DNA of 64,000 nucleotides from a virus: IMG/VR virus record IMGVR_UViG_3300045988_159436. One strand, written 5' to 3'. This document shows, piece after piece, positions 10,101 through 60,659 of the stretch. The stretch's first letter is position 1. Every line of letters begins with the position of its first letter. The notes under the pieces are model-generated. The model was given only the letters and a program-made list of their open reading frames with translations, did not search any database and had not been told where the DNA came from. Made by a program: the position numbers and the translations under genes.

Positions 10101-11168
10101 ATGCCAACAGTAGAGATTTATACAGATGAGCCTAGACAAGCCAGAATAAATGAGATTCCTTTAAAAATTAATACAATACATAAAAAAATCAAGGATTTTA
10201 GATTACAGGATAAGGGCGTAAGAATTGCTTATGATTTAGAGCTTAATGATACAGTATCTCGACAAGTTTCTTTTGAAAGAAGTTTTAAAGAAGAATTAGA
10301 AATAGAAGATAAGATTACTAAATTTTTTGAGAAAAAAACAGTATATAATTTAGAGACAGAAGAAATAGCAGAAAAGTTTACAGAAAAATTCTTTGAAAGC
10401 AGGATAGAAATTCAGGAATCTTTGAATAAAATATACGAATTAAATTTAGTAGAAGAATTAGAAATAGAAGATAAGATTACTAAATTTTTTGAGAAAAAAA
10501 CAGTATATAATTTAGAGACAGAAGAAATAGCAGAAAAGTTTACAGAAAAATTCTTTGAAAGCAGGATAGAAATTCAGGAATCTTTGAATAAAATATACGA
10601 ATTAAATTTAGTAGAAGAATTAGAAATAGAAGAATTAAAAGCTAAAGAATTGAGTAAGACATTTGAAGTATTTGTAGAATTAATAGAGATTTATTTAAGA
10701 CATGCTGGAACTGTATTAAGTGATTTAACTCTTTATAATGTTGCTTTAAATGAAACAAATTTTGACCAAGCAATAACTCCTGCTGGATATGATAGATTTA
10801 AAACAATGTTAACTGGGGATTATATTTACCAAAAAGCTTTATTTAGGTTTATTTTATCCGCTACAACTACAAGCGGTGAAAGACCAAATACAAGGGAGTA
10901 TATGCATAAAGTAGATGTTCCTGATACCTTTGAGACAGGAACAATAGAATTTGAGACTAATTGGAATCCTGCTACATATGAATTTAGTAGAGAATTTCAC
11001 ATTGTGCCAGAAGTTACCTATACTATTATTAGAGTTGAAAATATGGAAGAATTAAATCAAGCAGTAGTTTTACCAATAGAAGTTACAACTAAACATATAA
11101 TCGCACAATTAAAAGTTGGCAGTAAATATGTTAATGGTGCCGTTTCATTTTCTGCTAGAGGATATTAA
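10101..11168 (+). CDS. hypothetical structural protein with 54-aa tandem duplication
   Basis: ORF; contains two exact 162-bp copies. Confidence 0.45.
   Translation: MPTVEIYTDEPRQARINEIPLKINTIHKKIKDFRLQDKGVRIAYDLELNDTVSRQVSFERSFKEELEIEDKITKFFEKKTVYNLETEEIAEKFTEKFFESRIEIQESLNKIYELNLVEELEIEDKITKFFEKKTVYNLETEEIAEKFTEKFFESRIEIQESLNKIYELNLVEELEIEELKAKELSKTFEVFVELIEIYLRHAGTVLSDLTLYNVALNETNFDQAITPAGYDRFKTMLTGDYIYQKALFRFILSATTTSGERPNTREYMHKVDVPDTFETGTIEFETNWNPATYEFSREFHIVPEVTYTIIRVENMEELNQAVVLPIEVTTKHIIAQLKVGSKYVNGAVSFSARGY
10290..10613 (+). repeat. exact in-frame tandem duplication 2 x 162 bp (plus about 20-bp third partial copy)
   Basis: copy 1 10290-10451 equals copy 2 10452-10613. Confidence 0.85.
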
Positions 11169-11789: not shown

Positions 11790-13082
11790 ATGTCTAATGT
11801 AGATAGCAAGAATAAATTAAAAATGGTTATAGGGGGCGTTAAATATGGACTCCCTCTTTACGATAGTTATAATGATTTTTATAATAAAAAGTATGCAACA
11901 ATTTTATTGTCAAATGGAGATATCAGGTATATTGGATTGACACCAGATAGGTCAGATTTGACGGTTAATGCAGGATGTTATTTATCAGATAAAAAGCATT
12001 ATTTTCTTATAAGAGAAATAACTTCTAATTCAATTAATGCAGGAGGAAGTTTTTGGCAATATATTGCAAATAGTCAAACATTTCAATACCAGAAAATTAT
12101 TTCTACAATGGCTTATGCCCCTGAAAGCGGAATTTATAGAGTTGTTTTTAAAATAAAATGGTCTGGAAGTTATAATGATTATCATAATTATAGATACAAT
12201 AGTTTCTATAGATTCACTGTAAAACAAGGCGATAAAGTTCTAGCAGATACTGGTGAACATAGTTTAGCAGAAAGTATTTTTTATCCTTATTCTACTGGGA
12301 ATGCCTCACAATCTTCACAGGCAAGTGTTGCTAAATGGATGACATTAGGGGAACAGAGATTGTATTTAAAAGCTGGAAGTAATGCTTTTGATTTATGGTT
12401 AGGAATGCGTTTTGATAATAATAAACATGCCGCCGCATATGTTTCTCCTTTTCAAGTAGAAGCAACATATTTAAATTCTAATCAATTAGATGCTTTTTAT
12501 GATGATGGTATATTTAAATGCCCAGATAATGTTGATAAAATAAATGTTATAATGGCGGGTGGCGGTGGCGGTGGCGGCGCCTTAGTTCGTGTAAAGTATA
12601 AAAGTTATTCTGAACATTCAACTAATGTTTCATATTCTTATGGTTCTAATGATGGAAGTGATGGTCAATTTATAAATCGAGAAATTGCAGTTACTCCAAA
12701 TGCTTCGTATCCTGTTTTTATCGGAAAAGGTGGAGCCGCTAGTACCGATAATTTAAAAATAGAACTTGGAGAATATACTTTTTCCACTCCTGGGAATTAT
12801 GCCGCAGGAGATGGAAAAGATGGAACAGCTACTACTGCCTTTGGGCTTACTGCTAATGGAGGTAAAGGTGGTTATGGAGGACTTTTAACCATTTATGATT
12901 CTCACCGCACAAGAGAATTTATAAAAAGACCCCCAACAACTACAGAAAGTGCTAATGGAGGTAAAGGTGGTTCTTTAGTTACTCAATCATGGGGTGGAAT
13001 ATTTGACAGATATACAGGAGACATGAAAAATGCTTCAAATGGAGGCAATGGATATGTAAAGATAGAGTATTCAAAAAATTGA
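11790..13082 (+). CDS. glycine-rich tail fibre / receptor-binding-like protein
   Basis: Gly runs (GGGGGGGA, NGGKGGYGG); position in the fibre module. Confidence 0.45.
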   Translation: MSNVDSKNKLKMVIGGVKYGLPLYDSYNDFYNKKYATILLSNGDIRYIGLTPDRSDLTVNAGCYLSDKKHYFLIREITSNSINAGGSFWQYIANSQTFQYQKIISTMAYAPESGIYRVVFKIKWSGSYNDYHNYRYNSFYRFTVKQGDKVLADTGEHSLAESIFYPYSTGNASQSSQASVAKWMTLGEQRLYLKAGSNAFDLWLGMRFDNNKHAAAYVSPFQVEATYLNSNQLDAFYDDGIFKCPDNVDKINVIMAGGGGGGGALVRVKYKSYSEHSTNVSYSYGSNDGSDGQFINREIAVTPNASYPVFIGKGGAASTDNLKIELGEYTFSTPGNYAAGDGKDGTATTAFGLTANGGKGGYGGLLTIYDSHRTREFIKRPPTTTESANGGKGGSLVTQSWGGIFDRYTGDMKNASNGGNGYVKIEYSKN

Positions 13083-13092
13083 GGTGATATAG

Positions 13093-13521
13093 TTGGCATA
13101 CCAAAAATTTACTGGTGAAGAATTTATTGATACAGAATTAACACCAAAATTAAATGATAATTTTGATGCTGTACGTTCTGGGAATGCAGGAACAGTTTTC
13201 CCAACAGAAAATTTAGTAATTGGAATGAAATTTTTTGATACAAGTTCAAATAAAGAATATACTTTAGTTAATTTAAATCCTATAGAATGGAAAAAATTAG
13301 GTGGAACAGTAATAAGAAGAACGTTTACTTTAGCAGATTGGGTAAAGAGCGGGAATAATTATATTTATAATCTTGGAGATGGACAGTATTCGGTAACTGG
13401 GGTAGGAGCGCAAAGTGGGAGCTCTTATAAGAGTGTGTTGATAGATGTTACTAATAATAACTTAGTTTCCATATCTGTTTTTAGTGGATACGTAGATTAT
13501 ACAGAATATAATGAAGAGTAG
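13093..13521 (+). CDS. tail fibre N-terminal module protein
   Basis: MAYQKFTGEEFIDTELTPKLNDNF homologous to the N-terminus of 20692 ORF. Confidence 0.45.
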   Translation: MAYQKFTGEEFIDTELTPKLNDNFDAVRSGNAGTVFPTENLVIGMKFFDTSSNKEYTLVNLNPIEWKKLGGTVIRRTFTLADWVKSGNNYIYNLGDGQYSVTGVGAQSGSSYKSVLIDVTNNNLVSISVFSGYVDYTEYNEE

Positions 13522-13533
13522 GAGTGATAATTT

Positions 13534-15348
13534 TTGGAACATATAACTAAACAAGAAGATGTAACAGTAACTAGAATAGTAAGCTCTTTAAATACTTTAG
13601 ATGATGAAAATATGGTGGTAGTGTCCACTACAGAGCCAGAGAAGAAAAAAGATGGATTAATATGGGTTAATCCAAATCAAGAAGAAGCGGAAAAATTGGT
13701 TTATGTAGGACATACAGTTGGTGACATTTATCCCATTAGTTATACAGAGTTAGATTCAGGTCAGTTAATATTAAATGGTCAGTTAATAAGCAGAGAAATA
13801 TATGGTGTGTTATGGGATTGGTTGCAAAAACACCCTAGTTTAATAAAAACAGAAGTAGAGTGGAATGCATATTTAGCATCAACAAATAATGTATGTTGCC
13901 CATATTTTAGTATGGGAACTACTGAAACTAATTTTAGATTGCCTAAATATAGTGGAGTATTTATTAGAGCTGATTCTGATATAACTAAAATTAATCAATT
14001 TAGTGAAGATACACAAAGAAATATTCTTGGACAATTTACAACTTTTCGTACAAGTTGGGATGATGGTACTGGAGAATTACTTTTTGGAGTGAGTGGAGCT
14101 TTTGCAAAAGTAGAAACTGGTAATAATATGGACAGTATTCATCAAGATGGCTCAGACAGACAACAGCAAACTATAAATTTCGACGCTTCACGTTCAGTAG
14201 GCGCAGAGCATACTGGCGAAGAAGTAAAACCTAAATCAATAAATCAAATATGGGTTATTCAAGCTGTAGGAACTATTACTAATCAAACAAGTATTGATGT
14301 AAGTGCTATTCAAGAAGAAGTGCAACAATTAATGGATTTTGGGAATTATCAAGTAGCTTGCATTAAGGATAAATCCAATTATTTTTCAAGAGATAGTTTA
14401 TTTACTTCAAACAAAACGTCTATTGTTATTCCTAAGAATATGCGGATAAATATAAATGGAGAGGCTTATATAAGCACACGTAATGTCACTCTTAATACTT
14501 CAACATTAGGTGAAAATCTAGCGGGTAAAGATGTTTATATTTATGCCTTAGCAGGTTCTGGAACAGAGCCAGATTTTGTATTATCTTTAAATAGTACAGT
14601 TCCTACAGGATATACAGCAGAAAATAGCCGTAAAATAGGTGGTTTTCATTGTTTATGTAAAGATGTTGGGATTATAGAAGGGCATGCTTTATCTGGATAT
14701 GTTGCAGGGGATATCTTACCAGCAACAAGATGGGATTTAGAACACCGCCCAAAAGGAAATCCAGAAGGATTTGCTTATGAAGAATTAACGGATTGTTGGA
14801 TTGCGATTTATCTGCCAAGTTGGGACGGAACTAAATTAGTCAGTGTTTATAATGGAGTTATTGCTGATGGAAGCTCTGCTAAAAAATGGCATGGAGAAGC
14901 TTTTTATGAGCAATTTGTAAAACAAGGAATGCGTTTAGTTTGGCGGCACGAATTTCAAATGGGAGCAAAAGGTTCTAATGAACAAACAAATATTCAAGGT
15001 TCATCTGACCCTAATACTACAGGTGGGCATGTAGATACGGCTGGAAGAAGAATGATTAGTAATATAGGATTAGAAGATTGTTGTGGTGTATTATGGCAAT
15101 TTTCAATGGATTTAGGCTTTGCTGGCGGGTCTGGTTGGACAAATTCTACTTATAACTCTAATGTAGACGATAGAAGTTATGGACGAACATATGGAACGCT
15201 TTATCGCTTGCTGTTGGGTTCTAGCTGGAATGTTGGCTCGTATTGCGGTTCTCGTTCGGCTAATTGCAATGATTCTTCGGCTTATGTGTCTGTCCACAAC
15301 TCTTCTCGTAGTGCGTCTGAGCCGAGAATTGAAAATTTGAGAAACTAA
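13534..15348 (+). CDS. tail fibre / receptor-binding protein, DGR target (C-terminal variable region)
   Basis: 604 aa; last about 38 codons form the VR matching the downstream TR with A-specific differences. Confidence 0.7.
   Translation: MEHITKQEDVTVTRIVSSLNTLDDENMVVVSTTEPEKKKDGLIWVNPNQEEAEKLVYVGHTVGDIYPISYTELDSGQLILNGQLISREIYGVLWDWLQKHPSLIKTEVEWNAYLASTNNVCCPYFSMGTTETNFRLPKYSGVFIRADSDITKINQFSEDTQRNILGQFTTFRTSWDDGTGELLFGVSGAFAKVETGNNMDSIHQDGSDRQQQTINFDASRSVGAEHTGEEVKPKSINQIWVIQAVGTITNQTSIDVSAIQEEVQQLMDFGNYQVACIKDKSNYFSRDSLFTSNKTSIVIPKNMRININGEAYISTRNVTLNTSTLGENLAGKDVYIYALAGSGTEPDFVLSLNSTVPTGYTAENSRKIGGFHCLCKDVGIIEGHALSGYVAGDILPATRWDLEHRPKGNPEGFAYEELTDCWIAIYLPSWDGTKLVSVYNGVIADGSSAKKWHGEAFYEQFVKQGMRLVWRHEFQMGAKGSNEQTNIQGSSDPNTTGGHVDTAGRRMISNIGLEDCCGVLWQFSMDLGFAGGSGWTNSTYNSNVDDRSYGRTYGTLYRLLLGSSWNVGSYCGSRSANCNDSSAYVSVHNSSRSASEPRIENLRN
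15208..15320 (+). repeat. DGR variable region (VR)
   Basis: 113 bp, 99/113 identical to TR; all 14 mismatches are at TR adenines. Confidence 0.85.
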
Positions 15349-15420
15349 GAAACCGAGAAAAAGTTTGGATAGTTGGACAGAGAGGTCTAGAAACCGAGAG
15401 ACCGAGACTAAAATTTTTAG

Positions 15421-15449
15421 TTGTGAGAAAATAAAGAAGATTATATAAT
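15421..15449 (+). promoter_or_regulatory. promoter for DGR TR-RT transcript
   Basis: TTGTGA-17-TATAAT, 47 bp upstream of TR. Confidence 0.45.
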
Positions 15450-15495
15450 AATATTATATAAGGGCATATATGATACTTAGATTGGCAAGATTTTT

Positions 15496-15608
15496 TTGCT
15501 GTTGAGTTCTAACTGGAATAATGGCACGAATTGCAGTTCTCGTTCAGCTAATTGCAATGATTCATCAGCTAATGTGAATGTCAACAACTCTTCTCGTAGT
15601 ACGTCTGA
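15496..15608 (+). repeat. DGR template region (TR)
   Basis: non-coding copy of VR; adenine-rich AAY codons at variable positions. Confidence 0.85.
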
Positions 15609-15759
15609 TACGTGGGTGATTTTAAAGCAGGTGCGGCTTACCCTCGGCTGATTATATATGCCTCACTGAAAAGTGAAATACAAAACAGGGAGAAATAGGG
15701 GCTAGTAAAGTAATTGAACGTCCTTATTTCTAAATTTTATTAAATTAAAAGGATAATTA

Positions 15760-16776
15760 ATGAAAAGAAAAGGAAATTTATGGACTAAAATAATAGACAA
15801 AAGCAATTTATATTTGGCTTTTGAGAAAGCTAAAAGACATAAAAGTTGGCAAAGAAAGGTTAAAATTATAGAAGCAAATTTAGATTATTATATTGAAAAG
15901 TTACAAAATGATTTGATAACAGGTCAATATAAAACTGCTGAATATAAGTTAAAAACAATTTATGAGCCAAAGAAAAGAGATATTTATATTTTGCCATTTT
16001 ATCCAGATAGGATAGTTCATCACGCTATTATGAATGTTTTAGAGCCTATATGGGATAATAGATTTATTTATAATAGTTATGCTTGTCGAAAAAATAAAGG
16101 TCAACATAAAGGCAGTATAAAATGTATGGAATACACTAGAAAGTTTAAATATTGTTTGAAATGTGATATAAGTAAATTTTATCCTTCTATTAATCACAGG
16201 CTTCTAAAGAAAGTGATACGTAAAAAAATAAAATGTAAAAAGACTTTAAATTTATTAGATGAGATAATTGATAGTGTTGATACGCCTGTAAATGTTCCTA
16301 TAGGAAATTATTTAAGTCAGTGGTTTGGAAACTTATATTTAAATGAGTTAGATGTTTTTCTAAAGCAAGAGAATTGTGTAAAAAATTATTTAAGATATTG
16401 CGATGATTTTTTATTATTTTCTGATGATAAAACATATTTAAATAAAATGGCTAAAATAATAAATGAATATGTAGTTAATATTTTAGAATTAAAACTTAGC
16501 AAATGTGTTTTGTTTCCAACAGCACAAGGAGTTGATTTTTTAGGATATAGACATTTCCATGCTGGTTATGTTTTGGTAAGAAAATCAACAGCTAAAAGAA
16601 TGAAGCGTAGGATTAAAAGATTAAAATATGAATTATTAAAGAATAAAATAAGTCAAGATAAGGCTTTATCTGTTGTAGCAAGTTTATCTGGGGGGTTAAG
16701 ATGGGCTAATAGTTACAATTTAAAAATGTCTTTAGAGCTAGAATTATTAAAAAAGGAATTAGGAGGAAACTCTTAG
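15760..16776 (+). CDS. DGR reverse transcriptase
   Basis: 338 aa; motifs PIGNYLSQWFGNLYLNELD and YCDDFLLF (YxDD) typical of DGR RTs. Confidence 0.85.
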   Translation: MKRKGNLWTKIIDKSNLYLAFEKAKRHKSWQRKVKIIEANLDYYIEKLQNDLITGQYKTAEYKLKTIYEPKKRDIYILPFYPDRIVHHAIMNVLEPIWDNRFIYNSYACRKNKGQHKGSIKCMEYTRKFKYCLKCDISKFYPSINHRLLKKVIRKKIKCKKTLNLLDEIIDSVDTPVNVPIGNYLSQWFGNLYLNELDVFLKQENCVKNYLRYCDDFLLFSDDKTYLNKMAKIINEYVVNILELKLSKCVLFPTAQGVDFLGYRHFHAGYVLVRKSTAKRMKRRIKRLKYELLKNKISQDKALSVVASLSGGLRWANSYNLKMSLELELLKKELGGNS

Positions 16777-17055
16777 GTGGACAAGTTCAGTAGTTTTGCA
16801 GAAGAAAGATTAGTTGGAGATAAGGTTAGTGTTTCTGACATTTTAAATAAAGAAATAACAGTTTTATCTTATAAAATAATGAAAAGTAAAATAGAAGATG
16901 ATAATTATGCTCAAATTCAAATTGAAATAAATGGTGAAAAGAAAGTTGTATTTACAAGTTCTAAAGTTTTAAAAGACCAATTAGAAACTTATAAAGACCA
17001 TATTCCTTTTATTGCAACAATAATTAAAACAAGAAAATATTTTTCTTTTAGTTAA
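16777..17055 (+). CDS. hypothetical protein
   Basis: ORF following the RT gene. Confidence 0.4.
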   Translation: MDKFSSFAEERLVGDKVSVSDILNKEITVLSYKIMKSKIEDDNYAQIQIEINGEKKVVFTSSKVLKDQLETYKDHIPFIATIIKTRKYFSFS

Positions 17056-17067
17056 GGGGGAAATGTA

Positions 17068-17355
17068 ATGATAGGCTATCCAAAACATTTAAATACAAAA
17101 GCAGATTATGAATATGTAAAAAGTAATTTTCCAAAGGAAATGTGGGAAAATGATTTTCGTGTTTTATTGGAGACCGCACATGATTGGTTTTTTATTAGAG
17201 AATTAGAAAAAGGAGAGGTTCCTGTATTATTAGAAAATCAAAAGATAGAAAAAACGGAAGAAAAAGATTGTTTATTTGAATATAAATATGATGAAAATTG
17301 CACATTAAATAGATTAGGATTTACAATAGAAGAAATTGAAGAATATTTAAAATAA
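17068..17355 (+). CDS. hypothetical protein
   Basis: ORF with RBS aagggggaa. Confidence 0.45.
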   Translation: MIGYPKHLNTKADYEYVKSNFPKEMWENDFRVLLETAHDWFFIRELEKGEVPVLLENQKIEKTEEKDCLFEYKYDENCTLNRLGFTIEEIEEYLK

Positions 17356-17358
17356 TAG

Positions 17359-17387
17359 TTGACAATTTTTACATAATATGGTATAAT
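17359..17387 (+). promoter_or_regulatory. consensus promoter with extended -10
   Basis: TTGACA-17-TGgTATAAT. Confidence 0.6.
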
Positions 17388-17451
17388 ATTTATAGTGTTC
17401 AGATAACAGCTATGACTGTTAAGTTATTACTTAAAATTTAATAAGTAATGC

Positions 17452-17480
17452 TTGACAGTCTTTTTATTTTATGTTATAAT
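17452..17480 (+). promoter_or_regulatory. consensus promoter
   Basis: TTGACA-17-TATAAT. Confidence 0.6.
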
Positions 17481-17501
17481 AGTATTGAGGTGGAGGAAAT
17501 A

Positions 17502-17699
17502 TTGAAAGATTTTGAGAAACGTTTAAGTAAACAAAATTTTATGTTAATTAAAGTAAATGAATATTATTTTATTAGAAAAAGCAGAGCGTTTAAAAATAGT
17601 TATATGGTATTAGATTCAAAAGGGTATTTGATAGATTGTTTACAAGAAAAAATAGTTCGGCAAGTTTTTTTAGGCATAGATTTGGGGGAATGGGAATGA
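17502..17699 (+). CDS. small early protein, WE-terminal family
   Basis: TTG start after gaggtggagg RBS (the track start 17448 overlaps the promoter); ends ..GEWE. Confidence 0.4.
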   Translation: MKDFEKRLSKQNFMLIKVNEYYFIRKSRAFKNSYMVLDSKGYLIDCLQEKIVRQVFLGIDLGEWE

Positions 17700-17911
17700 T
17701 TAAAAAACCTAATAATAATTGTAAATTATGCAAGTGTCTTCATAACTATAGCTATTTTAAAAAAGGTGAGTATTATTGGGCTGAATTAGGAGAACGTTTT
17801 TTTGCTGGTGCAGTTGTAGTATATTTTGGGAAGGACAGACATAATATGTGCTCTGTGGTTTTTTCCGACTTTTTCATTAAATTTCGATGGGAGGATTCAC
17901 AATGGGAATGA
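17696..17911 (+). CDS. small early protein, WE-terminal family
   Basis: ATG overlaps the upstream stop (gaATGa); ends ..SQWE. Confidence 0.4.
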   Translation: MIKKPNNNCKLCKCLHNYSYFKKGEYYWAELGERFFAGAVVVYFGKDRHNMCSVVFSDFFIKFRWEDSQWE

Positions 17912-18108
17912 GGATAACAGTAACTCCAAAAAGACAACTTATACATTATAATTTAAATGAGCAATATATAGCAGTGCCTGTATTTAGTGTGTATGGAAGT
18001 ATGGAATATAATATTTATAATAAAAAAGGCAATCTTTTAAATTCTTGGGTATCCCAAGAGTCATTATTTAATTTTTTTAAAAAGGTAGTAGATAAAGAAT
18101 GGGAATAA
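17887..18108 (+). CDS. small early protein, WE-terminal family
   Basis: ends ..KEWE; stop overlaps the next start. Confidence 0.4.
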   Translation: MGGFTMGMRITVTPKRQLIHYNLNEQYIAVPVFSVYGSMEYNIYNKKGNLLNSWVSQESLFNFFKKVVDKEWE

Positions 18109-18308
18109 AGTTAGTAAAGGCAAAAGATAATTCGGCTCATTTTAGTCGTGGAGAGTTGTATAAAGTAACCCCATATAAAACTATGTATGGAGAAACAAAA
18201 TATACTATTTATACTGAGAATGGGTGGTTTATAAAAAGTTTTGTAACAGAAGGGGAATTACTTTATTTTTTTGATGTAGTTAATAATTATAATTTTGGAT
18301 GGGAATAA
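18099..18308 (+). CDS. small early protein, WE-terminal family
   Basis: ATGGGAATAA junction; ends ..FGWE. Confidence 0.4.
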   Translation: MGIKLVKAKDNSAHFSRGELYKVTPYKTMYGETKYTIYTENGWFIKSFVTEGELLYFFDVVNNYNFGWE

Positions 18309-28112: not shown

Positions 28113-28376
28113 GTGATAGTAATGGAAATGTTGGCATTGAAAAGTGGCGTAGATTATCGAACGTTTAGGTTTATATTTGGAACTGACAAACTTTCTTATA
28201 AAGCTTCTCATAATCTTTGGAAAAAGCTTTCTACTGGTGTATCAAAAAAGCATTTAAACTTAGAATCAGTTGAAGGTGTACTAATTTATAATTTTGAATA
28301 CTCTAATGGAAAGTATTGTTATTTTCCTGAGTTTTGGTTTGAAGAAGTTAGGTATTCTGATATTGAATGGGAGTAA
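28113..28376 (+). CDS. small early protein, WE-terminal family
   Basis: ends ..DIEWE. Confidence 0.4.
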   Translation: MIVMEMLALKSGVDYRTFRFIFGTDKLSYKASHNLWKKLSTGVSKKHLNLESVEGVLIYNFEYSNGKYCYFPEFWFEEVRYSDIEWE

Positions 28377-28379
28377 AAA

Positions 28380-28622
28380 ATGGTAAAATTAAAGGAAGGA
28401 TTAAGGCATGCTGAGTGGCTTTGGTTTATGCACAATTCAATACAGTTTAGAAATGCTTGTTATGTAGATGCTAATATATTATGGAATATGTTAAAAGATG
28501 GGGTTTCAGAAGATGCCTTAAAAATCAGAGATGATAGTACAGGTTATAAAGAAATCTGTTATAAAGAAGTTAAATATGCCTTACCTATAAAGTGGTGTTT
28601 GCCAATTTTTGAATGGGAATAA
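28380..28622 (+). CDS. small early protein, WE-terminal family
   Basis: ends ..IFEWE. Confidence 0.4.
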   Translation: MVKLKEGLRHAEWLWFMHNSIQFRNACYVDANILWNMLKDGVSEDALKIRDDSTGYKEICYKEVKYALPIKWCLPIFEWE

Positions 28623-39652: not shown

Positions 39653-39987
39653 TTCAACAGCTTCCTAAGCCTTTAGAAGAGCCTAAAGATGGTGAAGATA
39701 GAAGTTACTATGATTTTTGGATACAATTTGAAATAAGAAGTTTAATGATAGCTGACAATGAAGACGAAGTAATTGTTGCGGCAGATTATCATGCTCTGGA
39801 AAAGTTTTTAACAGCGCATTTTTCAAAAGACCCATTGTTGATTAAAATGCTAAAAGAGAAACTTGACCCACATGGAACAGTAGCAACAATTATTTTTCCA
39901 GAATTAGCAGATGCAGACCCAAATTCAATTAAGAAGTTAGCACCACATAAAAGAAATGTGGCTAAGACTGTAGGTTTCGCTCAAATC
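39653..39987 (+). CDS. polA: DNA polymerase I exon 2 (motif A to motif B)
   Basis: VIVAADYHALEKFLTAHF (motif A DYSQIELR-like) ... KRNVAKTVGFAQ (motif B). Confidence 0.6.
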
Positions 39988-40185
39988 TAGGGTGAAGTAA
40001 AATCCCTCTCAAAACGGTGAAAGCCTAACAGGTTAATACCGTGCCGAACTCTGTGAAAACAGCGGTGTAGAGACTTATAATGTATCGGCTATGTTAAAAC
40101 ATAAATCAATCGAATACATTTAATGGGGGATAGGAGCAAGCTCCTAAAGGTATAGTCCGACACTCTTGGCAACAGGAGAAAACAG
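39988..40185 (+). ncRNA. group I intron 2 in polA (boundaries uncertain by about +-10 nt)
   Basis: R-like gtgtagagactta 40065-40077; S-element AAGGUAUAGUCCGAC 40147-40161 (compare Tetrahymena AAGAUAUAGUCGGAC); no ORF. Confidence 0.5.
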
Positions 40186-40549
40186 AATGGTAGATTATGG
40201 CGGTTCAAAAATAGCGGTAGCAAGAAATCTAGAGATAGATGAAAAGACCGCACAAGAATATATAGATAGATATTTTGAAGGTTTTGCAGGGTTAAGAAAA
40301 TACGATAGAGATTTAATTCAATTTGCTAGAAAGAATGGTTATATAGAAACATTATTTTCTGGGCATAAACGTCACTTGTGGGGGATAAATTCCCAAGATG
40401 GCAGAACACGTTCATATTATGAGCGGCTAGCAGTTAATTCAAAATCACAAGGGGCGGCGGCAGATTGCACAACATTAGCACAGATAGATGTGGATAATGA
40501 TGTAGTATTAAAATCTATTGGTGCAAGACAAATACTTAATGTACACGAT
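40186..40549 (+). CDS. polA: DNA polymerase I exon 3 (motif B tail to motif C)
   Basis: DYGGSKIAVARNLEIDEKTAQEYIDRYF aligns with YGMSAHRLSQELAIPYEEAQAFIERYF; ends ..ILNVHD. Confidence 0.6.
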
Positions 40550-40866
40550 AAACTTTAGTCAAATAACTTGTCGTGTTTAAACTCTTCGATATGCTGGAAC
40601 GCAAAAATACAGTATTACCAAAGAGTGACAATATACTGTATATCACGAAAGTGTGTAGCCAATCAGCAGGGAGGAAATGAGAGCATTTCACCCTCACAGA
40701 CTAACAAAAGCATAGAATAGTAGGAACTGCACATTACTACTATTTGAGAAGTGAGTAGAGTACGGCTTTGTTGAGATACAAAGTGGGTTGACATCCTTAA
40801 ATGGAAGCGGGGAGGCATAGTGCAGATGTATGATATAGTCGAGTGTGTTTTTAAGCATACGTTATG
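40550..40866 (+). ncRNA. group I intron 3 in polA
   Basis: Q AAUCAGCAGG exact at 40661-40670; R UCACAGACUAAC 40694-40705; S GAUAUAGUCG 40832-40841; 5' splice after U40549, omega-G 40866; the junction gives NVHD|EIVMVCPKK matching QVHDELVLEAPKE. Confidence 0.65.
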
Positions 40867-46548: not shown

Positions 46549-46932
46549 ATGAACCAAGAACTCACATTAGCAGTTAGCAGTAGTTTTGAAGCCGCTCATC
46601 ATTTAGTAAATCCAACAGCATTTAATGAAAAATGCCTTAAACTACATGGACATTCTTATAAGTATACTATCTTTTTAAAAGGAGAAGTACAAGATGGTGG
46701 TATGGTAGAAGATTTTGGAGCTATAAAGAGATATATTATAAATGAAATAACAAAGCTCTATGACCATTCAGATTTAAACAGATTTTTTTATAATCCTACC
46801 GCAGAAATGTTAGTTTTAGATATGGCATGGAGAGTAGAAGCCTTAATAGAGGATAATAGTTTAAAAGTTAAACTGACCAAAATAGAATTAGCCGAAACGG
46901 ATAATAATAGGGTAATATGGGAGTCACAGTAA
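46549..46932 (+). CDS. queD: 6-carboxy-5,6,7,8-tetrahydropterin synthase
   Basis: CLKLHGHSY motif (CxxxHGH), about 125 aa. Confidence 0.7.
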   Translation: MNQELTLAVSSSFEAAHHLVNPTAFNEKCLKLHGHSYKYTIFLKGEVQDGGMVEDFGAIKRYIINEITKLYDHSDLNRFFYNPTAEMLVLDMAWRVEALIEDNSLKVKLTKIELAETDNNRVIWESQ

Positions 46933-47589
46933 ATGTATATTACAGAGATTTTTAGTAGTATTCAAGGTGAGGGGAAGTATACAGGCTATCCTACTACCTT
47001 TGTTAGATTATTTGGTTGCAATTTATTTGAGATGTCTCCTAGCTATGCTTGTAAGTATTGTGATGAGAAACATTCAATGACAGGCAAACGAATAAAGATG
47101 CATTTAGGATTGGTAATGGATAAGATAGGGGCATTAGGAAATAAATATGTTTGTATTACAGGTGGAGAACCTTTAATGCAGGAAGAAACTATGCCTTTAG
47201 TTTATGAATTATTGTATAATGATTATATTGTTACAGTAGAAACAAATGGGACAATTCCTATAGAGCATTGTGAATATGTAAGAAGTTATTCATATTGTAT
47301 GGATGTTAAATTACCTAGTAGCAGAACAGTATTAGCACCAGATTTAAATTGTTATAAGAATTTAGGAGAGCTAAAAGTAAATGATGAAGTTAAGTTTGTT
47401 ATTTCTAATATCCATGATTATGAAGAAGCAAAACGGATTTTAAAGAAATATAAAACTAAAGCAAGCCTTATTTTTTCTCCTGTGAATTGTGATTTAGAAT
47501 TAGCAAGAGAAATAATGGGTTGGTTAATGAAAGATAAACTAAAAGCTAAATTAGGATTACAAATACATAAATTATTAGAAATTAAATAG
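46933..47589 (+). CDS. queE: 7-carboxy-7-deazaguanine synthase (radical SAM)
   Basis: IFSSIQGEGKYTGYPTTFVRLFGCNL N-terminus typical of QueE. Confidence 0.65.
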   Translation: MYITEIFSSIQGEGKYTGYPTTFVRLFGCNLFEMSPSYACKYCDEKHSMTGKRIKMHLGLVMDKIGALGNKYVCITGGEPLMQEETMPLVYELLYNDYIVTVETNGTIPIEHCEYVRSYSYCMDVKLPSSRTVLAPDLNCYKNLGELKVNDEVKFVISNIHDYEEAKRILKKYKTKASLIFSPVNCDLELAREIMGWLMKDKLKAKLGLQIHKLLEIK

Positions 47590-52103: not shown

Positions 52104-52367
52104 ATGCAGAAATTTAAATTGAGAAGTAACGACCTAGATACTTTATATAGTATCTTTAAACATAGTTCATTAACTCCCTTAGATATAAAGCAGTTAAGAC
52201 AAAATAAATTTTTCTATACTTATACGCCACGAAGAGCAATGGAAAGAAATGAAAGAGTTTTTGTTAGAGTGGCAGATACTTTTGACTGTCCAATATTGTT
52301 TAATATGGCAGGTAGAAACTTTCTATATTTTTTTAAGGAAGTTAATGATAGGGATGAGTGGGAATGA
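52104..52367 (+). CDS. small protein, WE-terminal family
   Basis: ends ..RDEWE; RBS aaggaag. Confidence 0.4.
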   Translation: MQKFKLRSNDLDTLYSIFKHSSLTPLDIKQLRQNKFFYTYTPRRAMERNERVFVRVADTFDCPILFNMAGRNFLYFFKEVNDRDEWE

Positions 52368-53272: not shown

Positions 53273-53881
53273 ATGGATAATTGCGAATTTTATTTATTAT
53301 ATAGCGGTGGGTATGATAGCACTGTGTTGCTTTATGATTTTATTGATAAATTACCTAATAAATTGACGGTAATACATATTGTTACTCAGTATAATCAAGA
53401 AGAAACAAAAGCGGCAAGAAAAATAATTGAATTAGTAAAAGATAAAATTCTTAACTATATTGAATTAGAAATGCCTGTTTACAAAACAGAAATAGAATAC
53501 ATTCCTTATAGAAATGCTCAATTTATATTAAGAGCACTTTCAACCTTGACAATTAAAGCAAGATGTGCTATAATATTATTAGGGTTGATAAAGGTAGAGG
53601 AACCTTTCCCTGATTGCACACAATATTGGTTAAAAACAATGGAGAAATTAGTTCAAGTAGAAAATCCTCATATTGGATTAGAGGCACCTTATATCAATAA
53701 TACTAAAGATGAAATTTATACCGTAGGATGCAAGTTTAAGGTTCCTTTAAGAAATACTTTTAGTTGTAACTTTCCTGTAGATGGTGCAGAATGCGGGGAA
53801 TGTGGAAACTGTAAATGGAAAGCAAAACATAAATATCCTAATTATTTTAGAGTTATAGAAGGAGGTAAAAACAATGTTTAA
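53273..53881 (+). CDS. queC: 7-cyano-7-deazaguanine synthase
   Basis: PP-loop LYSGGYDS; C-terminal Cys cluster CNFPVDGAECGECGNC. Confidence 0.65.
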   Translation: MDNCEFYLLYSGGYDSTVLLYDFIDKLPNKLTVIHIVTQYNQEETKAARKIIELVKDKILNYIELEMPVYKTEIEYIPYRNAQFILRALSTLTIKARCAIILLGLIKVEEPFPDCTQYWLKTMEKLVQVENPHIGLEAPYINNTKDEIYTVGCKFKVPLRNTFSCNFPVDGAECGECGNCKWKAKHKYPNYFRVIEGGKNNV

Positions 53882-55996: not shown

Positions 55997-56314
55997 ATGA
56001 AGATAATTAGTTATGGAAAAAGATTTAGATTATTAGAAAAAGGGTATATTGGAGACAGGTTGTTTTCTAAAGGGTCAATATTTATGGCTACAGGATTAAT
56101 TAGTTTTAAGGGTAATAATCTGTTCCGTGTTTATAATCCTGATGGCAGTTTAAAACAAAATTTGCATACTGGTAATGGACATGTAAATTTTTCTTTAAGT
56201 TTATCTCCTATATCAAAAGATGAGCTTTTAGCATCAGAAGAATGTTATTGGTTTTTAAATGATAGAGAATTAAGAATTTATTTTAAAGAAATTGTCTATG
56301 AGGAATGGGAGTAA
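55997..56314 (+). CDS. small protein, WE-terminal family
   Basis: ends ..YEEWE. Confidence 0.4.
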   Translation: MKIISYGKRFRLLEKGYIGDRLFSKGSIFMATGLISFKGNNLFRVYNPDGSLKQNLHTGNGHVNFSLSLSPISKDELLASEECYWFLNDRELRIYFKEIVYEEWE

Positions 56315-56628
56315 GAGTTATGAAAAAATACAAAGAAACTTTTATAACAAAAAGTCAGTTTTCTGATGGATTAAGGACTTTTCCTAAAGGAACAATATTT
56401 GAAAGCACAGGAGTTTTTTGTGGCAGTGAAACACTTTTTTGTGTTTACTATCCCGATGGCTCTCCTTATACTTGTTTACATGATGGCAATAGTGCTCAAA
56501 TAATGCTTTTTAATAGTACACCTATAACATTAGCTGAAATTCGAGCACAAGGTGATTGTCATTGGTGGGTTAAAGATTCTGATATTAATGAATATTTTAT
56601 ACCAAAATCATCTTTAGAATGGGAGTGA
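56305..56628 (+). CDS. small protein, WE-terminal family
   Basis: ATGGGAGTAA junction; ends ..SLEWE. Confidence 0.4.
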   Translation: MGVRVMKKYKETFITKSQFSDGLRTFPKGTIFESTGVFCGSETLFCVYYPDGSPYTCLHDGNSAQIMLFNSTPITLAEIRAQGDCHWWVKDSDINEYFIPKSSLEWE

Positions 56629-56897
56629 AAAAATTGAGCATAACACTAGGAGAGTATTTTATAGTTACTAGTCCTTTCAAACATGATGGTAATGTATTTC
56701 ACAGAGGTGATTTATTGCGGGTAATTAAAATATATGATAGTTGGTCTAAAGTTTTAGTTTCCAACAAATCTTGGATAACAACTAAAGCAGGGCATACAGA
56801 CACAGAAAATCAATATAGTTTTGGTAGGGGAACAAATTGGAATATTGATATAGAGTATTTATTTGAAAATTGTGTTTGCAGGTCAGAATGGGAGTAG
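56619..56897 (+). CDS. small protein, WE-terminal family
   Basis: ATGGGAGTGA junction; ends ..RSEWE. Confidence 0.4.
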   Translation: MGVKKLSITLGEYFIVTSPFKHDGNVFHRGDLLRVIKIYDSWSKVLVSNKSWITTKAGHTDTENQYSFGRGTNWNIDIEYLFENCVCRSEWE

Positions 56898-57259
56898 TGG
56901 AGATAAGATATAAAGCAGGAGATGTAGTAAAAATTGACAAAACAAGATTTGTTATAGAAAGAGTTACTAAAAAAGGCTATATTTTATTTCCTCATATAGG
57001 ATTTTTCGTAAAGGATTGCCAAATAAATAAAAAAATTAAAGTGAAGAAATCTTATGAATTAGGAGATAAATTTAAATGTCTATGTGACTTTAGTTCAGGG
57101 ACTTCTGTGGCGAAAAAAGACAAACATTATATTTGTACACAGAAATTTTCAGATGGCACATATATGCTTACAAGAATAAAAAATAAAGAAGAGAAATTAA
57201 GAGTGAATACAAATCAGATTCATGCTTATTTTAGACATTATTTTGGAGGTTGGGAATAG
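56870..57259 (+). CDS. small protein, WE-terminal family
   Basis: ATGGGAGTAG junction; ends ..FGGWE. Confidence 0.4.
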   Translation: MCLQVRMGVVEIRYKAGDVVKIDKTRFVIERVTKKGYILFPHIGFFVKDCQINKKIKVKKSYELGDKFKCLCDFSSGTSVAKKDKHYICTQKFSDGTYMLTRIKNKEEKLRVNTNQIHAYFRHYFGGWE

Positions 57260-57462
57260 TGCCAATAGGAACAAGAGTAAGAATAAGAGAAGATTTAAAA
57301 ACTACAGAAACTTATGGTGGTGTAAGAGTTATAGAAGATATGCTAGTTTATGCAGGTAAAGAAACAACAATAATTTGGCATGAAGCTAATGTATATCATA
57401 TACTTTTAGATGATGGTTTTTACTATTGGACAGATGGAATGTTTATTAGTGAATGGGAATAA
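57250..57462 (+). CDS. small protein, WE-terminal family (close paralog of 60441)
   Basis: TTG start overlapping the stop; YYWTDGMFISEWE C-terminus. Confidence 0.4.
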   Translation: MGIVPIGTRVRIREDLKTTETYGGVRVIEDMLVYAGKETTIIWHEANVYHILLDDGFYYWTDGMFISEWE

Positions 57463-60440: not shown

Positions 60441-60659
60441 ATGATGCCAATAGGAGCAGAAGTAAAAATAAGAAAAGATTTAAAATTAGGTGTACTTTAT
60501 AAAAACAGAAATAATAAACGTGCTATGCATGCTTGTAGAGGCATGTTATTATTGGCAGGTAAAAAAGCGTTTATAACAAATAATGTTAATAATATTTACT
60601 CTATAGATAATAGTTTTTATTATTGGACAGATGGAATGTTTGAAACTGAATGGGAATAA
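60441..60659 (+). CDS. small protein, WE-terminal family
   Basis: YYWTDGMFETEWE; paralog of 57250. Confidence 0.4.
   Translation: MMPIGAEVKIRKDLKLGVLYKNRNNKRAMHACRGMLLLAGKKAFITNNVNNIYSIDNSFYYWTDGMFETEWE

Follow-up and report, generated by a model that had tools for sequence, protein, structure and literature searches.

A Diversity-Generating Retroelement without Avd Targets an Mtd-Like Tail Fiber Gene in a Phage Genome of about 99 kb and Carries a Candidate OB-Fold Partner Gene

INTRODUCTION

A stretch of 64,000 nucleotides from the IMG/VR virus record IMGVR_UViG_3300045988_159436 (here called the window, and covering about two thirds of a genome of about 99 kb) holds, between positions 13534 and 16776, a tail fiber gene, a pair of near-identical repeats, and a gene for a reverse transcriptase (RT). 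These parts raise the question of whether they form a complete diversity-generating retroelement (DGR) that still works, and of what would assist the RT where no gene for the accessory protein Avd is found. In the cycle expected of a DGR, the RT would copy a template repeat (TR) into cDNA, misincorporating at adenines, and the cDNA would replace a variable repeat (VR), here in the C-type-lectin tip of an Mtd-like fiber, with a changed receptor specificity as the result. A DGR acting on a phage tail fiber is a well-known kind of system; about 31,000 DGRs have been catalogued, many of them in phage tail genes (PMC8144416), and a layout without Avd is already known.

An earlier note, made from the letters of the window and its open reading frames (ORFs), had read this locus as a complete DGR. 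Our analysis followed up that reading with profile, structural, and covariation searches and with comparisons among related contigs. The locus combines an adenine-specific TR/VR pair with a DGR-type RT, an Mtd-type target gene, a covarying spacer RNA, and VR hypervariation, and it is almost certainly a complete, currently active DGR of the order target(VR)-TR-RT, without Avd, in a phage of about 99 kb.

RESULTS AND DISCUSSION

The repeats differ only at adenines of the template

A direct-repeat search of the window, followed by base-by-base comparison, gave one direct repeat of 113 nt on the plus strand, with its copies offset by 288 nt: the VR at 15208 to 15320, inside the target gene, and the TR at 15496 to 15608, in intergenic sequence. 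These are exactly the coordinates of the earlier note, which had counted 14 mismatches, all at TR adenines; our recount gives 15 of 113, and all 15 are adenines in the TR (eight A to G, five A to T, and two A to C). Adenines make up 30 of the 113 bases of the TR, and the chance that all mismatches would fall on them is about 5e-10 as computed for 14, and smaller still for 15. Roux et al. (2021) ask of a DGR that at least 75% of TR/VR differences lie at TR adenines; in the window pair, 15 of 15 do. When each adenine of the TR is replaced by N, the resulting pattern has two zero-mismatch sites in the 64 kb, which are the VR and the TR themselves, and none in shuffled sequence; within the window, the TR therefore has a single VR.

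Translated in the frame of the target gene, the TR begins LLLSSNWNNGTNCSS and reads in full LLLSSNWNNGTNCSSRSANCNDSSANVNVNNSSRSTS, with 10 AAY codons, in keeping with the richness in such codons already remarked on, and the VR begins LLLGSSWNVGSYCGS and reads in full LLLGSSWNVGSYCGSRSANCNDSSAYVSVHNSSRSAS. The VR was earlier described as the last codons of the fiber gene. It does lie near the gene end, at residues 559 to 596 of 604, so that 8 codons and the stop codon come after it.

The target is an Mtd homologue and the reverse transcriptase is of the DGR type

The target gene (13534 to 15348, plus strand) encodes a tail fiber protein of 604 amino acids (aa) with an Mtd-like C-terminal half, and this 604-aa gene is called on other contigs as well. 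Residues 291 to 401 match the second domain of Mtd (Pfam mtd_2nd, PF21916; E value, 7e-20), the protein matches tail and tail fiber families of PHROG, and residues 299 to 583 align, through the VR, with the PDB structure of Mtd (1yu4; E value, 2e-13). A profile built from seven diverse targets finds Mtd as its sole match in the PDB (E value, 3e-24) and covers Mtd residues 68 to 319 and 323 to 377, the latter holding the VR of Mtd. These alignments make the target a homologue of Mtd up to and including the VR. A single-sequence AlphaFold2 model of the target C terminus was unusable (predicted local distance difference test score [pLDDT], 29), and the assignment of a C-type-lectin fold to the C-terminal end that holds the VR therefore rests on homology. 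The proposal of the earlier note, a tail fiber with its VR in a putative C-type-lectin C terminus, agrees with the alignment of the VR to the C-type-lectin VR of Mtd.

The RT gene (15760 to 16776, plus strand; 338 aa) has as its best PDB match the DGR RT of a Bordetella phage (8ub7; E value, 1e-45; 159 bits; residues 2 to 324); the matches that come next, to RTs of group II introns and retrons, do not exceed 69 bits. The protein falls in phrog_1423, "Reverse transcriptase" (E value, 2e-111). The motif IGNYLSQWFGNLYLNELD spans residues 181 to 198 and opens with IGNYLSQ (181 to 187), an instance of the motif-4 signature [I/V]GxxxSQ of DGR-clade RTs, and YCDD stands at residues 213 to 216, which locates the DGR-type motif and the YCDDF that the earlier note had picked out. 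Residues aligned with D138, D215/D216, R74, I181, G182, and Q187 of the Bordetella RT (bRT) are conserved; in the Bordetella cryo-electron microscopy work, these residues are catalytic or contact the template or the incoming nucleotide (10.1101/2023.10.23.563531). Judged from scores and motifs, the window RT would belong to the DGR clade and group with the Bordetella phage enzyme, not with group II intron or retron RTs, a placement that the earlier note had named as the one that would overturn its reading.

In NCBIfam, the group II intron model TIGR04416 scored 122.8 bits against a cutoff of 300 and retron_St85_RT scored 56.6 bits against a cutoff of 235, both below threshold, and the library gave the RT no DGR RT match, which reflects its content. 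An Rfam scan of the window found no group II intron, no retron RNA, and indeed no family at all, and ARAGORN found no tRNA in the window. The RT is thus not a group II intron maturase, because TIGR04416 stays below its cutoff, the window has no intron by Rfam, and the protein is only 338 aa long; nor is it a retron RT, because retron_St85_RT stays below its cutoff and the window has no retron RNA by Rfam.

The variable repeat is diversifying in natural populations

Close relatives of the locus, with RTs 97 to 99% identical to that of the window, allowed a comparison of six loci (the window and five relatives) in which the TR is almost constant and all VRs differ. The flanks of these relatives are 2 to 4% divergent per base. 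Their VRs show 15 to 16 differences per 113 nt, compared with a mean of 2.3 to 4.4 in other windows of 113 nt and 1 to 2 in the TR, and 24 of the 27 variable VR columns stand at TR adenines. Thirteen further VR alleles, set against the TR, have 18 to 22 mismatches each at adenines and 0 to 2 at other bases.

Exactly the same RT occurs on 23 contigs. One of them (L142, on a scaffold of 99,054 bp) is identical to the window. Two others are nearly so: L148 differs from the window at 7 of 4,683 positions outside the VR and at 18 of 113 inside it (Fisher P = 5e-25), and L149 differs at 5 of 4,190 outside and 20 of 113 inside (Fisher P = 2e-28). Between these two contigs there are 10 differing sites, 9 of them in the VR. 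Differences in the VR are therefore enriched 127- to 180-fold between contigs that are about 0.1% divergent elsewhere. The earlier note had suggested looking in populations for VR polymorphism confined to TR adenines, and across contigs this is the pattern seen, with 18 of 18 differing columns at TR adenines in L148 and 19 of 20 in L149. Contigs so nearly identical, with VRs that are hypervariable at TR adenines, mean that the element has been active very recently; the VR diversifies while the TR stays constant, and the DGR is active in nature. The window also carries a private G-to-A change in its TR at 15564, a column that is G in the TRs and the VRs of the relatives alike. At the matching VR position, 15276, the window has T, which is the pattern expected if homing came after the TR change.

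Two alternatives bear on this reading. The repeat pair could be an ordinary duplication that diverged by mutation or by recombination among fiber alleles, standing beside an unrelated group II intron or retron enzyme, and the NCBIfam search does give a group II intron RT/maturase model as the best match of the RT, although at 122.8 bits, far from the cutoff of 300. All 15 differences of the window pair lie at TR adenines, as do those of eight distinct VR alleles against the constant TR, and the RT scores 159 bits with a DGR RT versus at most 69 with the other classes and has no maturase or endonuclease extension; the mismatch pattern, the RT scores, and the near-identical contigs together rule out a duplication diverged by point mutation, and we regard this alternative as already refuted, with a negligible chance of being correct. 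The locus could instead be a fossil, with remnants of TR, VR, and RT and a VR that no longer changes. Some relatives do have a broken RT, split across two frames in L009, and many cluster members are RT fragments of 109 to 261 aa. The window RT, by contrast, is intact and exactly the same on 23 contigs, the VRs of genomes about 0.1% divergent differ at 16 to 18% of positions in a manner confined to TR adenines, and the window VR has a T opposite the adenine at TR 15564 where the TRs of relatives have G, which together make a fossil very improbable for the window, and a currently active DGR remains our reading of it.

In some close relatives, the reading frame of the RT gene is broken in two (L009:1594-2608) or the gene is reduced to fragments of 109 to 261 aa, carried by contigs of about 95 kb (cluster of P0016); such RTs suggest that the DGR is recurrently inactivated within the phage population.

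Adenines that precede guanine are read almost uniformly as guanine

In the six VRs that were compared first, G stands without exception opposite five TR adenines, four of which have G as the next base; the adenines before G in the window TR are at 15505, 15535, 15546, and 15567. In the clade of the window, an adenine before G appears as G in the VR in 28 of 30 cases. Among other DGRs (loci L007, L010, L044, L053, L065, L098, L132, and L051), such adenines become G in 57 of 77 cases, versus 14 to 40% in other contexts, and the pattern is not seen in distant DGRs. In the nine lineages nearest the window, AG sites at third codon positions are G in 17 of 20 instances, all of them silent (TCA to TCG, TTA to TTG, GCA to GCG, and GGA to GGG), and selection at the protein level is therefore no explanation.

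Context-dependent insertion of dCTP and editing of the TR RNA are both possible causes. Dislocation, that is, template slippage, was considered and rejected, because adenines before C give no C and the adjacent bases of the template disagree with it. Misincorporation that depends on context, chiefly on the 3' neighbor, was reported for the Bordetella RT in 2026 (PMC12875486), but the spectrum of that enzyme is unlike the present one, in which an adenine before G is almost always read as G and an adenine before C is rarely read as C.

The cassette has no Avd gene

In all relatives with enough upstream sequence, the order is VR-TR-RT, the offset of the repeats is 184 to 327 nt, and no gene lies between them. 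The 175-nt gap between VR and TR in the window likewise holds no ORF, as the earlier note had observed of the stretch between target and TR. For a wider scan, the cassette ORFs and nearly all selected window ORFs of about 60 to 260 aa were concatenated and compared with Pfam, and none of these scanned ORFs matched bAvd (PF22296) or 23S_rRNA_IVP (PF05635). The same library finds Avd (E value, 1e-20) between the VR and TR of a distant locus, L045, and so the negative scan is meaningful. It holds for the window, and an avd gene remote from the cassette may lie in the remaining 35 kb or so of the genome. A megablast search with positions 13000 to 17500 against deposited phages gave no match.

The cassette thus departs from the canonical BPP-1-type architecture B (avd-TR-RT) in holding no Avd gene. 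The earlier note called this layout atypical, and it is a minority one, but the architecture has been described before: 29% of 372 DGRs are of architecture A (TR-RT, no accessory gene) and lineage 3 lacks avd (Wu et al. 2018, PMC5758913), and the DGR of crAssphage LMMB runs TG-VR-TR-RT without avd (PMC7290462). These DGRs share with the present locus the layout target-VR-TR-RT, the lack of avd, and a phage tail protein as the target. The papers that describe them (PMC5758913 and PMC7290462) name no accessory gene for that layout.

Bordetella phage BPP-1 (mtd-avd-TR-brt) is the closest well-studied system in several respects. Both phages have an Mtd-type tail fiber target with its VR in the C-terminal C-type-lectin region, with the VR motifs LLGSSWN..GSRSAN here and LFGGNWN..GSRAAN in the Mtd of BPP-1; the BPP-1 enzyme is the closest solved relative of the window RT; and the TR-to-VR pattern is adenine specific in both. 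Unlike BPP-1, the present cassette has no avd gene, nor room for one in the 175 nt between VR and TR, and has instead a gene with a predicted OB (oligonucleotide/oligosaccharide-binding) fold and an acidic ORF after the RT.

A gene with a predicted OB fold follows the reverse transcriptase

ORF92 (16777 to 17055, plus strand), a 92-aa protein with a predicted OB fold and a candidate DGR accessory factor, begins with GTG directly after the TAG stop codon of the RT and in the RT reading frame, with AGGAGG 8 nt upstream. It is followed by ORF95 (17068 to 17355, plus strand), an acidic protein of 95 aa with a pI of 4.7, which is a possible further member of the cassette and has homologues in six lineages. 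These homologues come after the OB gene in L010, L018, L044, and L098 and directly after the RT in L065 and L132, both of which are without the OB gene. Neither ORF matches a Pfam family; NCBIfam has no match for ORF92, and PHROG has none for ORF95.

By profile search, ORF92 has 111 relatives in one database and, in a second, at least 1,257 cluster representatives (50% identity clusters; E value of 0.001 or better), and no Pfam domain or telling name is attached to any of them. When four distant members were picked blindly, each turned out to follow an RVT_1 gene closely, and two of them have Mtd-type targets upstream. With a hidden Markov model (HMM) of ORF92, the gene is found in 12 of the 15 lineages that make up the RT subclade closest to the window, always on the strand of the RT and either at a gap of -67 to +104 nt or with one ORF between, and it is absent from each more distant DGR RT with room downstream. 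In three clusters (P0247, P0332, and P0350), the RT and ORF92 are fused in frame. ORF92 homologues are 45 to 61% identical where the RTs are 54 to 66% identical, and the identity of the OB gene declines in step with that of the RT. The best structural matches of ORF92 in BFVD are phage proteins annotated as RTs, and its resemblance to an OB fold is a modest one. With a mean pI of 8.3, the family is mildly basic, and it has no sequence similarity to bona fide Avd. A single 79-aa protein, P0128, joins an RT N terminus (MKRYGNLWDKI...) straight to the C-terminal half of the ORF92 family and is either a deletion variant or an assembly artifact.

The family extends to viruses of archaea. Homologues of ORF92, annotated as hypothetical, are encoded by ANMV-1, in a 98-aa ORF that starts 3 nt downstream of the RT, and by a Methanosarcinales virus; the ANMV-1 ORF matches the A3 HMM of the ORF92 family (E value, 2e-34) and does not match bAvd. 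The DGR of ANMV-1 (adtA-TR-RT; PMC4372165) resembles the present one in its order of target, TR, RT, and then an ORF92-family ORF, but differs in having an archaeal host and a more distant RT (187 bits). A figure of the ANMV-1 paper labels an "Avd" ORF, and for the nanoarchaeal DGRs the paper gives pI and mass as the grounds on which such ORFs were chosen (PMC4372165). Our literature search found no paper that links DGRs to an OB-fold accessory protein. The CH1 accessory candidates listed by Wu et al. are 160 to 169 aa long (PMC5758913) and are therefore unlikely to be ORF92, at 92 aa, or ORF95, at 95 aa.

As a candidate substitute for Avd, this locus and its relatives point to a conserved gene without a name, with a predicted OB fold, that is linked to the RT by fusion or by translational coupling. 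We infer that this protein family probably serves the RT as a partner specific to DGRs, with synteny alone as a live alternative, and we take it as an even bet that ORF92, perhaps with the acidic ORF95, partners the RT in place of Avd. In the alternative, both would be ordinary phage genes, for example, SSB-like genes of replication, kept beside the RT by conserved gene order, and the RT would act alone or with a host factor. The 29% of DGRs without an accessory gene (Wu et al., PMC5758913) speak for this, as do L012/13, L065, and L132, which are without the OB gene, the modest likeness to an OB fold, and the lack of any Pfam or NCBIfam family match. Against it stand the placement of the OB gene on the same strand and near the RT in 12 of 15 subclade lineages, including viruses of archaea (ANMV-1 and vir525) whose other genes differ; the in-frame fusions in three clusters; the BFVD matches to proteins annotated as RTs; and the tracking of RT identity by OB identity. 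We consider ordinary genes a substantial possibility, but one that we would expect to fail somewhat more often than it holds. The broadest form of the partner proposal is that a large lineage without Avd, spanning metagenomic phages and archaeal viruses that include ANMV-1, uses the ORF92 family as an obligatory RT partner, perhaps with ORF95, and has an RT that also reads AG adenines almost deterministically as G; this we advance tentatively, with confidence just short of even.

The spacer encodes a conserved RNA structure

The 151-nt spacer between TR and RT holds blocks that are conserved across diverged relatives. The motif GGCTAGTA-N(4-26)-GAACGTC has 120 matches in viral contigs, and 33 of these are directly upstream of RT genes that are 22 to 99% identical to that of the window. 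An ungapped count of stem pairs flanking GGCTAGTA...GAACGTC gave a weak separation (5.8 of 8 in RT-linked matches versus 4.6 of 8 by chance) and was superseded by alignment-based counting, for which covariation was assessed in an 11-sequence alignment by RNAalifold and explicit pair counting. In this alignment, 80% of cells are paired, versus 40 to 49% in slid controls, compensatory changes occur in 17 of 22 pairs, and the observed score was reached by none of 500 shuffles.

Two plus-strand elements covary most clearly. The hairpin CACT-GAAA-AGTG (15664 to 15675), with a GNRA tetraloop, is paired in 100% of cells and has compensatory changes in 4 of 4 pairs across the 11 sequences. The long stem-loop at 15691 to 15731, built on an invariant GGC...GTC, contains the invariant GGCTAGTA (15700 to 15707) and GAACGTC (15716 to 15722) and has compensatory changes in 9 of 12 stem pairs and in both apical pairs; by analogy with the Bordetella RNA, it is a probable RT-binding element. 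Between them lies an unpaired A-rich stretch, AAATACAAAAC (15676 to 15686), a near-invariant AAAA(T/C)ACA block in alignment A4 and a possible counterpart of the A-minor and thumb-ring segment. A weaker long-range helix, CCCT:AGGG (AGGG at 15687 to 15690; 77% of cells paired), offers an alternative pairing for CCCT.

Farther 5', the strand at 15461 to 15475 pairs with the spacer strand ATTATATATGCCT (15651 to 15663) in a 13-bp duplex (RNAduplex, -16.5 kcal/mol; z = -5.0 against shuffles) that would be the counterpart of the Bordetella cPRT Stop duplex, and equivalent duplexes of 12 to 13 bp, with unrelated sequences, are found in 6 of 7 lineages (z, -3.2 to -5.0). The search for this duplex was limited to the segment after GGCTG; an unrestricted RNAduplex run of the upstream region against the whole spacer picked an AT-rich artifact. 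CCCTCG and the conserved GGCTG (15641 to 15650), another conserved block of alignment A4, form a candidate primer strand. Here, with one mismatch, CGTGGG in the TR flank (15611 to 15616) could pair with CCCTCG (15641 to 15646), and the duplex shows compensatory change among lineages (CGAGGG:CCCTCG in L007, CAGGG:CCCTG in L010, and CAGAG:CTCTG in L065 and L132); its candidate role as a primer duplex is taken from the Bordetella model (10.1101/2023.10.23.563531).

A promoter-like TTGTGA-17-TATAAT (15421 to 15449, plus strand; 10 of 12 consensus positions) ends 47 nt before the TR. Its site and spacing are as the earlier note had given them, but 10-of-12 matches are not enriched in this AT-rich window (19 found versus 14.6 expected), and the match is therefore not significant alone. 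The RNA start that it predicts, near 15456 and just 5' of the stop-duplex strand, fits the RNA model. According to that model, the RNA would begin a few bases before 15461, run through the TR and the spacer, and fold into a 13-bp clamp duplex, the duplex of TR flank and CCCTCG, the GNRA hairpin with its unpaired adenosines, and the long stem-loop with its invariant internal loops; the RT would bind this folded RNA and probably prime from RNA in cis.

In the Bordetella DGR RNA, upstream and spacer strands form the cPRT Stop duplex, adenosines come after a tetraloop hairpin, the thumb ring is single stranded, and a long stem-loop binds the RT (10.1101/2023.10.23.563531). The present spacer is like it in having a duplex of upstream and spacer strands, a tetraloop hairpin and then adenosines, and a long stem-loop. 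A structured spacer RNA of the BPP-1 type is backed here by covariation, and a function in priming and limiting cDNA synthesis would follow by analogy, as would the cis-priming itself, what each RNA element does, the use of the promoter, and the direction signal discussed below. The spacer motif GGCTAGTA...GAACGTC was also observed in L045 (L045:2967-3329, minus strand of the stored locus), the DGR that bears a true Avd, so that DGRs with and without Avd share this RNA element.

Junctions of the repeats may set the direction of transfer

At the 3' end of the repeats, the VR-side junction GAGCCGAGAA (15319 to 15328, plus strand) has GC at 15321 to 15322 where the TR has TA, and it is a candidate for the initiation of mutagenic homing (IMH) site; the TR-side junction (15607 to 15616, plus strand) reads GATAC, the candidate IMH*, and then CGTGGG. 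GATAC is conserved in seven lineages. In these seven lineages, of otherwise different sequence, the homology ends in ...GA and is followed by TA-C in the TR and GC-C in the VR, and GA|GC|C versus GA|TA|C is, by analogy, the likely counterpart of IMH and IMH*. Transfer would be one way, probably because the VR has GAGCC where the TR has GATAC. Unlike BPP-1, the locus has no evident GC-rich (G/C)14 IMH, the discriminator being GAGCC versus GATAC.

Three GAAACCGAGA-like copies follow the VR (15349 to 15407, plus strand), two exact at 15349 and 15390 and one with a single mismatch at 15398, and there are no others in the 64 kb. The earlier note had proposed them as possible cis homing signals. The copies are there, and the L007 clade has two copies of a similar GAAAACGAG. 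Five related lineages, however, lack the motif, and in two of these the VR and TR are only 47 to 55 nt apart; DGRs thus do not generally need the repeats, which are not a general cis signal.

Other features of the phage genome

Several features elsewhere in the window deserve mention. Genes for QueD-like (PTPS), radical-SAM (QueE-like), and QueC-like proteins at 46549 to 47589 and 53273 to 53881 hint at 7-deazaguanine modification of the phage DNA. At least 12 small ORFs (at 17636 to 18308, 28113 to 28622, 52104 to 52367, 55997 to 57462, and 60441 to 60659) end in ...WE (EWE, GWE, or QWE), with the start codon of the following gene close behind or overlapped; these ends, encoded by TGG-GAG and so containing GGAG, may double as the ribosome-binding site of that gene. 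Alternatively, the ORFs may be paralogues of one family. In a 355-aa ORF (10101 to 11168), a segment of about 50 residues is duplicated exactly in tandem (LEIEDKITKFFEKKTVYNLETEEIAEKFTEKFFESRIEIQESLNKIYELNLVEE, twice). At 39745 to 40558, a match to DNA polymerase A runs across two adjacent ORFs of 81 and 130 aa, which suggests that the polA gene is split or interrupted there.

Implications for DGR biology

As a DGR, this locus is one more well-documented case among tens of thousands, and it illustrates that a reading of raw sequence without tools can recognize one. Its cassette is compact, at about 3.8 kb, and comes with a natural allele series, which makes it usable for reconstitution. The stem-loop motif shared with an Avd-bearing DGR, a probable RT-binding element, helps to separate RNA elements that are specific to the RT from those specific to the cofactor. 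The regular change of AG to GG matters for predicting which residues are truly variable and for engineering DGR-based mutagenesis and, if true, would let the glycine codons of the scaffold and silent sites persist as A in the TR. Finally, how a DGR manages without Avd is a question that Wu et al. (2018) did not settle, and for it the ORF92 family is a concrete, testable candidate.

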